A program made the position numbers and the translations under genes. Below, one piece after another: positions 2,967-38,707 of a stretch of 38,707 nt of DNA (position 1 is the stretch's first letter; every line of letters begins with the position of its first letter). This DNA comes from a virus (Duplodnaviria; Heunggongvirae; Uroviricota; Caudoviricetes): positions 1-38,707 of the IMG/VR virus record IMGVR_UViG_2529292997_000008, one strand, 5' to 3'. The notes beneath the pieces are model-generated. The model was given only the letters and a program-made list of their open reading frames with translations. It made no database searches and was not told the origin of the DNA.

Positions 2967-4022
2967 TCAGGATATAGCACAACGAAAAAACTTGCACCCC
3001 AAATAATCCTCAATGCGTTTTTGTCTTATCGCATCGCTTTTTGCTTGCCGTTTGTGATGTGATTCATCAATTTCTACAGCAATATTATTCACAAGATCGT
3101 AGCCATCAATAAAATACTTGTTGCCAGCAACATTAACAGGATATTGCCTTATTAATTTAACTCCTTTTAGTTTTTCGTACATAGTTAATCCAGCATGTTC
3201 ATAACGCTTCCTAATCATATTTTTACAATTATAACTCATTTCTGATAATTTCTCGTCACATTCCCTTTTTATTTCCTCAATTACATTCTTGTCGCTTTTT
3301 AATTCAATAAAGTTTTCTATGTCGTTATAATTACCGCATTCAAAATTATTACTAAGACCTTTATTTTGACCCCATGTATGATACTTTTCCGCTATCTTAT
3401 CGCTAATATATCTTTCATATCCATAATTTGTTTTAACTGTAAAATATTCAATATTTAAATCAATGGTAAACTCATCATTATTAAGATGTTCATTTAAAAA
3501 CGTATCTGGATCTGCAATATCGCTTGAATGAAACAACCTTACCCATAGTTTTTCTATTGATACTCCGCGAGTAACGAACAACCATTTTTTATACTTTTCA
3601 GCATCTTCCTTTGACACATACACAGAGCATCGCCCGGGAGTATCACTAGTTTCAACATAGTTGTTACACCATAAAACATAATTATAAGCATAAGGACTAT
3701 CTTTTCTGGTATTATTTGAATATTTATTAAACACATCTTGTAAATCAACTAATCCACAAGATTCAATAACTGGCTTAACCCAATTTTCATTATATTCATA
3801 ATGTCTATATTTACCAGGTGTAACGAATCTAATAAACGTTATAGGTGTGATATACACATCATCACCATCAATAATAAAATCCTTGTATTCCTCAAATCCG
3901 TAAAGATCAGAGTATTTAACAAATGATTTAAGCCTATCGATTTCAAGTTCAGAAACAAGATTATTAACAGATAGTAATTGCGTGTCCTTACAATTTAGTT
4001 TCACATGATAAGTGGCAATCAT
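2967..4022 (-). CDS. low-GC accessory protein with C-terminal DUF559/Vsr-like (PD-(D/E)xK) endonuclease-type motif
   Basis: Track ORF 2967..4103 trimmed to ATG at 4022 preceded by AAGAGG; 351 aa; markedly AT-rich versus flanks; C-terminus FIDGYDLVNNIAVEIDESHH..DAIRQKRIEDYLGCKFFR fits pattern aIE.DG..HH...D..R...L...G..v.R. Confidence 0.6.
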   Translation of the reverse strand: MIATYHVKLNCKDTQLLSVNNLVSELEIDRLKSFVKYSDLYGFEEYKDFIIDGDDVYITPITFIRFVTPGKYRHYEYNENWVKPVIESCGLVDLQDVFNKYSNNTRKDSPYAYNYVLWCNNYVETSDTPGRCSVYVSKEDAEKYKKWLFVTRGVSIEKLWVRLFHSSDIADPDTFLNEHLNNDEFTIDLNIEYFTVKTNYGYERYISDKIAEKYHTWGQNKGLSNNFECGNYNDIENFIELKSDKNVIEEIKRECDEKLSEMSYNCKNMIRKRYEHAGLTMYEKLKGVKLIRQYPVNVAGNKYFIDGYDLVNNIAVEIDESHHKRQAKSDAIRQKRIEDYLGCKFFRCAIS

Positions 4023-4175
4023 ATGTACCTCTTTTCTTAATTTTATATATAACGCCTCAGACGTGCTACAACGCAAAAATCCCACCGCGTAACCCGTTTG
4101 CACAGGTTGCAGTGTCTTATTGCGTCAGAGGCGCTCTCAGGTGGCTAATTTTTGATTTACAGGCTGGTATGAAGG

Positions 4176-4277
4176 TTATGGATTGATAAGAAGGAACAAA
4201 CCGCCGAACAAAGCGACGTTAACAGCGATTGCAGCAGCGATGGCAAAGGCCAGGGCGAAAACGTGTTTACCGTCCAT
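4176..4277 (-). CDS. small hydrophobic peptide (33 aa, single predicted TM helix)
   Basis: MDGKHVFALAFAIAAAIAVNVALFGGLFLLINP; ATG with GAGAGGA RBS; not in track (<60 aa). Confidence 0.3.
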   Translation of the reverse strand: MDGKHVFALAFAIAAAIAVNVALFGGLFLLINP

Positions 4278-4410
4278 TTTAAAATCCTCTCTAAAACGCT
4301 CTATAACGAGCTAAATAGCTAAAGATATGCAATCGTAGCACCATGCGTGTTTTAGCTCGCTGGTGAGGTTGTTTTGTGGGTAATTTTGGATTTTTGCGAA
4401 TCGTGGTTGG

Positions 4411-5463
4411 TCAAAGAGCGCCTGCGCGTGTGTCGCGTAGCGTTTTTGGTTTAAGCAGGAAATCAAGTGTCGCTGTGAAGCCATTGCCGAAGTAAAAATC
4501 TGAAGCCGTGTTTTTGAATGTTTCGAAGTAGGCGACAAAGCCGTTAATGCTTTTGTCTTTCAGGTAGTCAGTGAACGCATAGATCTTGCGTTCAAGATCC
4601 CGATCCAGTTCGACAGGTGGTAACAGGCCGTCAAACGTGCTGTTAAATGCTTCCACCACGTCGGCAGCGTTTGCAGTGGCTGACAGTTTGCGCCATTGTT
4701 CAGCATCAGTCAGATACCCATCAAATTTAGTTACCCGGCAAATATTGATAGGCTTAGGTGTTCCACCACGGCTACGCCATTGCGTTAAAGCCCACTCAAT
4801 CACTAATGTGATCTCATCCTCCGTATACGCTTTACGTGTTTTTGTTTCTGTCAGTAGTTCGATGAATGGCTTCGCATCACGACATTTGCATCCTGCCTTG
4901 TCGTTGTAGAAGGCCAGGCAACGCAACGCCGCTTCGTTTACGCCATCATGATTGACCATTTTTTGTTCATTTTCGACAATACACGAAGTGTATATATCTT
5001 TTTCTCTTTCTTCTTCTACTTCTAATTCTAATTCATGACCCTTTCCTGACCCGGTCATGACCCTATCATGACCTTTTTGTGTTGGATTGATTAACTTTTC
5101 TAATTTTAATTGCTCCTTAGCTGTGTTTATGGCGGCCCTGTACGCGCTTTTAGAAGTCATTGATTGGTCAAGCCTTTTCAATAACTTTAAACAAGTTATG
5201 TGGCCTTGAGAACATTCAAACAAACCAATTTCGATGAAGTATTTCATCATTTCTTCTATACGTTTTTCAGTCGATCCGACGTTTCGCGCAATGATTCTCG
5301 CGTCATGTCGTAGGTCAAAAGTCAGATTGTGCTGATCTACGTCATAAGTTATTAGTTCGAGGCAATACCAATAAAGCCCGTACCCTTCCAGGCCATAATC
5401 TAACAAAACGTTTTGAAGTTTTTCATCGCGGTTCGCATCGCTGTCATGCTTAAACCACTTCAT
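4411..5463 (-). CDS. replication initiation protein, phage replisome-organizer N-terminal type
   Basis: 350 aa; N-terminus MKWFKHDSDANRDEKLQNVLLDYGLEGYGLYWYCLELI resembles replisome organizer N-domain; acidic linker; GGAGGG RBS; start overlaps upstream stop. Confidence 0.65.
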   Translation of the reverse strand: MKWFKHDSDANRDEKLQNVLLDYGLEGYGLYWYCLELITYDVDQHNLTFDLRHDARIIARNVGSTEKRIEEMMKYFIEIGLFECSQGHITCLKLLKRLDQSMTSKSAYRAAINTAKEQLKLEKLINPTQKGHDRVMTGSGKGHELELEVEEEREKDIYTSCIVENEQKMVNHDGVNEAALRCLAFYNDKAGCKCRDAKPFIELLTETKTRKAYTEDEITLVIEWALTQWRSRGGTPKPINICRVTKFDGYLTDAEQWRKLSATANAADVVEAFNSTFDGLLPPVELDRDLERKIYAFTDYLKDKSINGFVAYFETFKNTASDFYFGNGFTATLDFLLKPKTLRDTRAGAL

Positions 5464-5724: not shown

Positions 5725-5833
5725 CGCATTTTCTCCTATGGTTAGAGTGAACGCGCGGGCGGGCATCCCATTAGCATTAGATAGCAGTGACTGACCGCTC
5801 AACAGATCCCGCCGTTGCGTGATATTTGTTTTT

Positions 5834-5867
5834 CGCTTCGCAGCGACACCGGATTTTTAAAGAGCAT
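5834..5867 (-). promoter_or_regulatory. candidate nut-like site (boxA TGCTCTTTAAAAA plus boxB-like hairpin CGCU-GCGA-AGCG) in leftward leader
   Basis: Read on minus strand; boxA 11-12/13 to rrn/lambda boxA consensus, followed 8 nt later by 4-bp stem with GNRA-type loop. Confidence 0.35.
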
Positions 5868-38540: not shown

Positions 38541-38568
38541 CACAGAAAACCCCCAGCTAGGCTGGGGG
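38541..38568 (-). terminator. candidate convergent terminator for minus-strand transcription from beyond the window
   Basis: CCCCCAGC-TAG-GCTGGGGG hairpin with T-run on the minus strand only. Confidence 0.4.
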
Positions 38569-38707
38569 TTCCGGAAAGCTTTCAGCTTTAAGCCAGTTAT
38601 TAAAACCCCTTTTGATTTGTTAAAACACCTTGCGGTCTGGCAACTGCAAGTGTCAAACAAGAAATCAAAAGGGGGTCCCAATGGGGAACGAAAAGAGCTT
38701 AGCGCAC

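Follow-up and report, generated by a model that had tools for sequence, protein, structure and literature searches.

The minus strand of the window (here the whole stretch of DNA analysed, 38,707 nt) carries a 33-codon open reading frame at 4176..4277 that is, we are highly confident, a real protein-coding gene for a membrane helix. The frame begins with an ATG at 4277-4275, ends with a TAA at 4178-4176, and encodes MDGKHVFALAFAIAAAIAVNVALFGGLFLLINP. Taken as a whole, the account that we favor, with moderate confidence, is that of a genuine, translated accessory gene of the mEpimmI phages, whose product would be a 33-residue single-pass inner-membrane peptide with the expression and host action proposed below. 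An earlier note on this DNA had suggested a small gene for one hydrophobic helix, functionally paired with the neighboring AT-rich island and possibly a type I toxin. The gene and its helix stood up to comparative analysis; the pairing with the island and the toxin label did not.

The features discussed here are collected in Table 1. The coordinates and the Shine-Dalgarno motif that had been read earlier were confirmed, on the minus strand, as was the placement of the frame with the initiator gene on one side and the AT-rich gene on the other.

Table 1. Features in and around the 33-codon frame (positions in the window)
Feature	Position	Strand	Basis
33-codon CDS, 102 nt	4176..4277	-	sequence, codon-position bias, pN/pS, homologue, AlphaFold helix
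Shine-Dalgarno GAGAGGA, spacing 7 nt to ATG	4285..4291	-	read from sequence
Conserved 133-nt leader, initiator stop to small ORF	4278..4410	-	alignment of relatives, fold
Upstream neighbor, Lin1244/O-like replication initiator, 350 aa	4411..5463	-	Pfam PF14297 (Lin1244_N), PHROG 'replication initiation O-like'
18-nt direct repeat, upstream copy	4376..4393	.	repeat family D2, 89% identity, 235-nt spacing
18-nt direct repeat, downstream copy; mosaic joint where ORF-less relatives rejoin common sequence	4141..4158	.	repeat and alignments
Conserved long hairpin (core 4066-4125), left edge of variable cargo slot	4062..4134	-	fold, consensus structure
Downstream neighbor, AT-rich 351-aa cargo gene with DUF559/Vsr-like nuclease C-terminus	2967..4022	-	domain search, composition, slot survey

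The reading frame, its peptide and its phage family

Megablast of positions 3900-4700 matched seven phages at 88-94% identity (mEp554, mEp021, mEp515, mEp013, mEp010, mEp044 and MagusPhagus) and, as prophages, 33 complete E. coli genomes. By these matches we assign the window to the mEp021-like (mEpimmI) coliphages or prophages. The mEpimmI phages are Nus-dependent, non-lambdoid temperate coliphages (PMC11893012). The order of features on the strand of the small ORF, with cI divergent, is cI, a nutL-like boxA/boxB, a wHTH gene, the initiator, the small ORF, the conserved hairpin, the cargo slot, a 372-aa exonuclease-like gene and a DnaB helicase.

Two further observations concern the window at large. 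Inside the O-like initiator gene, four iterons (TCATGACCC / TCCTGACCC) lie 11 bp apart at 5033-5073, adjoined by an AT-rich tract at 5000-5032; they probably mark the phage replication origin, located within the initiator gene as in lambda. At its other extreme the window stops matching the tape-measure gene of its relatives at ~38537, positions 38548-38671 match Rfam STnc490 (146 bits), and the last ~170 nt match thousands of E. coli chromosome and plasmid sites. The end of the window looks like the end of an insertion sequence in or beside the tape-measure gene, an element that we take to be possibly of the IS200 type.

The ORF had been described earlier as unannotatable, which proved to be wrong, as six GenBank phage records and many E. 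coli records annotate it as 'hypothetical protein'. The phage entries are mEp554_13, mEp515_14, mEp013_13, mEp010_14, mEp044_13 and MagusPhagus CDS0006, that is, six of the seven phages, and an exact-sequence look-up found variants under the same name in hundreds of E. coli contigs (e.g., EQQ67121.1, GDJ46065.1). The annotation is absent solely from the mEp021 record and from PGAP/RefSeq prophage annotations. All annotated members are 33 aa long, are 82-97% identical to the window peptide, and occupy the same site after the replication initiator. The window peptide conforms to the family pattern M-[DN]-G-K-[HR]-x-F-A-L-x-F-A-...-V-N-...-F-G-G-L-...-N-P (33 residues), and its gene has the family's position, directly after the initiator and ahead of the conserved hairpin and cargo slot.

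The exact peptide of the window (I31 with F28) was not found in a collection of 15 billion proteins; an identical CDS is present in four IMG/VR contigs. Searches of the GTDB species representatives, by exact DNA pattern or by degenerate back-translation, found no copy, and the family seems to be limited to phages and prophages of E. coli, none of them carried by the single representative genome. The peptide is not present in the supplements of PMC11893012 and PMC11188072.

The translation signal is conserved along with the frame. All listed relatives have GAGAGGA or a purine variant of it (GAGGGGA, GGGAGGA), except L014 (GAGATGA). The leader contains an 11-nt inverted repeat, AGCGAGCTAAA (4361-4351) and TTTAGCTCGTT (4315-4305), and the long-range hairpin formed by these two arms is the only structure in its centroid fold, in which the GAGAGGA is unpaired. 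Overall, the leader folds no better than shuffled sequences (z = -0.41).

Copies of the ORF were gathered by a peptide-based scan and from two independent DNA anchors, one inside the ORF and the other in the downstream hairpin, the latter hence unbiased as to the presence of the ORF. Nearly all relatives fetched carry the 33-codon frame, and the 28 distinct CDS versions and 40 distinct peptides recovered are, without exception, 33 codons long. The earlier note had staked its case on conservation of the frame in related phages and on a translation signal; both are kept, an outcome that clearly favors a gene.

Variable sites are distributed 16/14/27 over codon positions 1/2/3, and the position of the stop is constant though the stop codon varies (TAA or TGA). 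Pooled pairwise pN/pS for the 28 CDS versions, calculated from the few independent substitutions that a narrow and shallowly diverged family provides, was 0.20 in the ORF frame. The value rose to 1.0-1.6 in four of the other five frames; the remaining one, antisense with third codon positions in common, gave 0.40. The overlapping antisense shadow ORF has neither a conserved start nor a conserved end among the relatives. Between the window and MagusPhagus, dN/dS was 0.12. Part of the nucleotide conservation is not coding-specific, as the non-coding DNA around the ORF is also highly conserved. We read the pattern of substitutions as purifying selection on the peptide.

The single hydrophobic helix proposed earlier was borne out by two predictions: the Kyte-Doolittle mean is 2.55 over residues 6-24, and AlphaFold2, run on the single sequence, gave one helix spanning residues 3-31 at a mean pLDDT of 93.7. 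The peptide has a GRAVY of 1.58, and its hydrophobic run covers residues 6-31. Charged or basic residues are found N-terminally only (D2, K4, H5/R5). Since the basic residues are at the N-terminus, the positive-inside rule suggests an N-in/C-out topology. Ten positions are invariant in the family: M1, K4, F7, F11, A12, I17, V19, N20, G25 and L27. Helix-helix association in membranes is driven by features such as an invariant Asn midway along an Ala/Gly-rich helix. Sequence searches of Pfam, PHROGs, NCBIfam, PADLOC and PDB found no relative of the peptide.

Transfer, exchange and the neighboring cargo slot

A HMMER scan of 1.84 billion representative proteins returned three matches only. These were the family itself (cluster representative P0002, phmmer E = 3.4e-12 for the window peptide), an over-extended 78-aa call of the same gene at locus L062 (P0032), and P0033, MDNKRMFALVFAFVMAIVVNAILFGGLFMLVNP, which is 64% identical to the window peptide and is the only distant homologue. 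P0033 is encoded on a metagenomic contig (L060/L061) crowded with small same-strand genes, and its neighbors show matches to PHROGs without assigned function and to proteins of large coliphages of the rV5/Av-05 type. A terminator with an 11-bp stem follows the gene. The window and L060 versions share 68% DNA identity, with dS > 1 and dN/dS of 0.20, and the similarity is confined to the CDS, from ATG to stop; the ribosome-binding sites and flanks are unrelated.

We conclude that the gene has passed from one phage to another, unrelated one with nothing beyond its CDS. Such a transfer, with the peptide kept, is hard to explain except as that of a protein-coding gene. As the homologue resides in a different type of phage with different neighbors, the peptide more likely targets the membrane itself, or a host component within it, than some other protein of the phage.

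Within the mEpimmI group the small ORF behaves as a cassette, bracketed by the 18-nt direct repeats. In one contig (L017 6872-7208, IMG/VR UViG_3300045988_062505) the cassette is duplicated in tandem with a period of 235 nt, equal to the repeat spacing, and the start codon is ATT. ATT replaces ATG in L013, L017 and L024, together with A8T, L9Q and A15V relative to the closest intact allele; these alleles look like decay, or relaxed constraint after loss of translation. A 77-aa MarR-like wHTH gene (L053 1201-1434, minus strand; L062 959-1192) takes the place of the ORF behind the same leader in L039 and L053, and follows the ORF in L062, which we interpret as a second exchangeable cassette position upstream of the hairpin. 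Because the ORF has been replaced in L039 and L053 and has lost its start codon in three contigs, we regard the gene as widespread but dispensable. It is found beside both types of initiator N-terminus, Lin1244-type and helix-turn-helix-type (L010), and is independent of both neighboring genes. The sequence GTGCTACNNTTGC, upstream of the ORF and recurring before the 77-aa gene of L062, was considered as a regulatory signal and rejected, as its frequency in the window is at chance (11 occurrences vs 9.7 expected).

The hairpin downstream of the ORF has an A-tract on its 5' side and GGAUUUUU on its 3' side. Its folding energy is -24.9 kcal/mol (z = -4.6), and 0 of 200 shuffles fold as well. It is kept in all relatives, including the ORF-less L039 and L053, and the consensus structure of 24 sequences includes a single compensatory change, from C-G to A-U, found in 4 of them. 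Between the stem and the U-run lie three unpaired bases, and the hairpin is absent from the terminator predictions in the deposited records of relatives. It looks like an intrinsic terminator, possibly bidirectional, or an RNase III-type processing site, and it is a separate feature, not part of the peptide gene. A study of mEp021 antitermination reportedly mapped terminators t1-t5. We also considered a long-range antiterminator pairing through the 11-nt complementarity of 4388-4398 with 4072-4082, and discarded it, as the upstream arm shows no co-variation in relatives.

The hairpin ends invariantly in TTGTAG, and in the loci with the 'TCTGAGGCGTT' flank this is followed after 16-18 nt by TATATA/TATAAA (4051-4076, minus strand). 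A -35/-10-like match is present here at 8/12 in 14 of 37 sequences, and may act as the promoter of the cargo gene.

The variable slot, bounded by the conserved hairpin and the exonuclease-like gene, was measurable in 41 loci. It is empty (53-54 nt) in 11 of these, and nine empty-slot loci (54 nt) have the ORF. Other loci hold at least 10 different, unrelated cargo genes of 178-495 aa. The AT-rich gene, 351-353 aa long, occupies the slot in six of the 41 loci; its GC content is 24-37%, vs about 45-50% around it, and with a PADLOC match to mREase_II (2.3e-7) it looks like a defense-type moron. The small ORF is present in all measured loci except L039 and L053. As the ORF is present whatever the cargo, it is not functionally paired with the island, contrary to what had been proposed from the window by itself.

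These comparisons bear on three alternatives to a peptide acting on its own account. If conservation belonged to an RNA or DNA element (a leader, a processing site or a recombination joint), the frame would be incidental. The flanking non-coding sequence is indeed equally conserved, a strongly structured element lies just downstream, and PGAP never calls the ORF. However, substitutions concentrate at third positions, pN/pS is as low as 0.20 in the ORF frame only, the stop stays in place across TAA and TGA, the antisense shadow ORF keeps neither end, and the L060 homologue retains the peptide with synonymous sites saturated and flanks unlike. We conclude that this non-coding reading, which we consider most unlikely, is largely refuted. 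An extremely improbable alternative is a regulatory leader peptide, whose translation would control the hairpin and, with it, read-through to the genes for cargo, exonuclease and helicase, whatever the sequence of the peptide. It would suit the location of the ORF, since a conserved terminator-like hairpin follows ~40 nt downstream, ahead of genes needed for replication, but a ribosome at the stop (4176) is out of reach of the stem, which begins near 4134, and the amino-acid sequence is under selection. Moreover, L062 has the 77-aa gene between ORF and hairpin, L053 has the hairpin without the ORF, and the L060 homologue has a different downstream context. To the idea that the peptide is a partner (an immunity or anchor subunit) of the AT-rich DUF559-like gene we give almost no credence. 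It is suggested by physical adjacency, in this window only, and we consider it refuted by the comparative data: the AT-rich gene is in few of the loci, the ORF in nearly all and beside nine empty slots, and the conserved hairpin separates the two genes.

Expression and possible action

Consensus scans of the window and its relatives found no sigma-70-like promoter between the initiator gene and the ORF. The leader may hold a weak or non-sigma-70 promoter, one candidate being the conserved TGCTACNNT, which resembles an extended -10. Farther upstream on the same strand, at ~5830-5866, a boxA-like TGCTCTTTAAAAA precedes the hairpin TCGCTGCGAAGCGA and an A-run, an arrangement that we take to be the probable nutL site of Gp17 (N-like) antitermination; Gp17-dependent antitermination and a nutL-like site have been reported for mEp021 (PMC11893012 section 3.5). 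A second boxA-like sequence, CGCTCTTTGACC, at 4408-4419 on the minus strand, overlaps the initiator stop codon and hardly varies among relatives; its conservation may be no more than that of coding sequence.

With no promoter before the ORF and a nutL-like site upstream on the same strand, read-through is the simplest model. The small ORF is most likely co-transcribed with the initiator, and expression by read-through of the early operon seems to us reasonably probable. The ORF, lacking a promoter of its own, would be reached by transcription from the CI-repressed early leftward promoter, passing the nutL-like site and the initiator gene. The peptide would be an early lytic product, like the replication proteins, and would be translated from its own exposed Shine-Dalgarno element. 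Published proteomics of mEp021 covered virion proteins only (PMC11893012).

Once translated, the helix would insert with its K4/H5 end in the cytoplasm and its Asn-Pro end in the periplasm. Asn20, in mid-membrane, and an Ala/Gly-rich face (A8, A12, A16, G25, G26) could promote helix-helix association, between copies of the peptide or with a membrane protein of the host. The peptide would act by modifying a host inner-membrane function during infection, for host takeover or for blocking a second phage, and it would serve neither the adjacent AT-rich gene nor the replication initiator. We put forward this helix-packing action on the host inner membrane, with exclusion of a second phage as one option, as a tentative proposal that may well be wrong. 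A bolder version, which we regard as improbable, is that the peptide belongs to a new class of mobile phage 'micro-effectors'. The helix would oligomerize via the invariant Asn and form a small pore or disable a specific E. coli inner-membrane machine early, and the cassette with its 18-nt direct repeats would be exchanged between temperate mEpimmI phages and unrelated lytic-type coliphages.

Two more specific functions were weighed against this proposal. A dedicated superinfection-exclusion or abortive-infection factor, like T4 Imm, P22 SieA/SieB or HK97 gp15, would have the predicted inner-membrane location. Homologues come from temperate phages and also from a phage contig, made up mostly of small genes, that resembles the early region of large lytic coliphages, a distribution that fits a function against the host envelope or against competing phages. 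Exclusion is, moreover, compatible with the explanation that we favor, as one of its two sub-options. Temperate-phage exclusion proteins of this type are expressed from the prophage. The small ORF lies in a CI-repressed early operon, on the opposite strand to cI, with no recognizable promoter of its own, and would therefore probably protect only an already infected cell, not a lysogen. The peptide has no PADLOC or PHROGs match, and exclusion experiments with mEpimmI phages implicated Lpp lipoproteins, not the small ORF (PMC11893012 section 3.7). We consider this reading unlikely, if worth keeping in view. A type I toxin would be a membrane-depolarizing peptide held in check by a cis- or trans-encoded antisense sRNA, as in hok/sok, ldr/rdl, ibs/sib and tisB/istR. 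At 33 aa the peptide falls within the small hydrophobic membrane peptides (under about 60 aa, one transmembrane helix); it shares the size and shape of these toxins (small, very hydrophobic, single helix) and lies in a mobile element. However, the antisense promoter that the earlier note had proposed looking for did not emerge: a consensus scan of the opposite strand from -160 to +240 found no conserved sigma-70-like promoter, with at most 2 of 37 sequences matching at any position and none in the window. Rfam gave no match in 3950-4500 even at E<=1, and there was no match to PADLOC or to the Pfam and NCBIfam toxin families (Hok/Gef, Ldr, Ibs, ShoB, TisB, DinQ, Zor and others). The Shine-Dalgarno element is strong and, by prediction, not sequestered, in a leader whose structure does not exceed that of shuffled sequence; the gene forms part of an operon and is not a self-contained locus; the distant homologue shares nothing beyond the CDS; and the peptide is without the charged C-terminal tail typical of Hok and Ldr. 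We therefore regard a type I toxin as very unlikely. Near the ORF, the plus strand has a single terminator-like hairpin (4422-4440). We considered that it might end an antisense RNA and rejected the idea; the hairpin is inside the initiator CDS and is lost in mEp515 and mEp010.

Significance and comparison with known systems

The small ORF is one more well-supported case of the very short phage membrane proteins that standard pipelines such as PGAP skip. Its strong conservation, its sharing with an unrelated phage, and its natural knock-out and replacement alleles make it a clean and cheap candidate for a functional test, and the mEp021 system is experimentally tractable. For practical purposes two corrections apply: no link should be drawn from the gene to the AT-rich nuclease-like one, and the label of type I toxin should be avoided. 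No long-standing question hangs on it.

The type I toxins of E. coli (Hok, LdrD, IbsC, ShoB, TisB, DinQ, ZorO) resemble the window peptide as short single hydrophobic helices with a predicted place in the inner membrane. Unlike them, it has no family match and no detectable antisense RNA gene, and it is distinguished by an exposed strong Shine-Dalgarno element, a phage early operon and an uncharged C-terminus. T4 Imm, P22 SieA and HK97 gp15 are phage inner-membrane proteins, some of them early, of ~80 aa or more and often with two or more transmembrane segments. The window peptide is likewise phage-encoded and predicted to be in the inner membrane, but is smaller and shows no sequence similarity to them.

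KdpF (29 aa), MgtS (31 aa), CydX (37 aa), AcrZ (49 aa) and YldA (29 aa) are small inner-membrane accessory proteins of enterobacteria. The window peptide is like them in length, in consisting nearly entirely of one transmembrane helix, in having one or two basic residues at one end, and in having faces of small residues fit to pack on a larger membrane protein; it differs in being phage-borne and in having no homology to them. The best NCBIfam match, to YldA, scored 14 bits (cutoff 45) and was obtained with the L060 homologue only; the window peptide gave none. Compared with the 33-aa mEpimmI family (mEp554_13 and its relatives), for which no function is annotated, the window peptide shows no essential difference: they are the same gene family, and the gene takes its place as an ordinary, uncharacterized 'hypothetical small phage protein' among the small phage membrane proteins.
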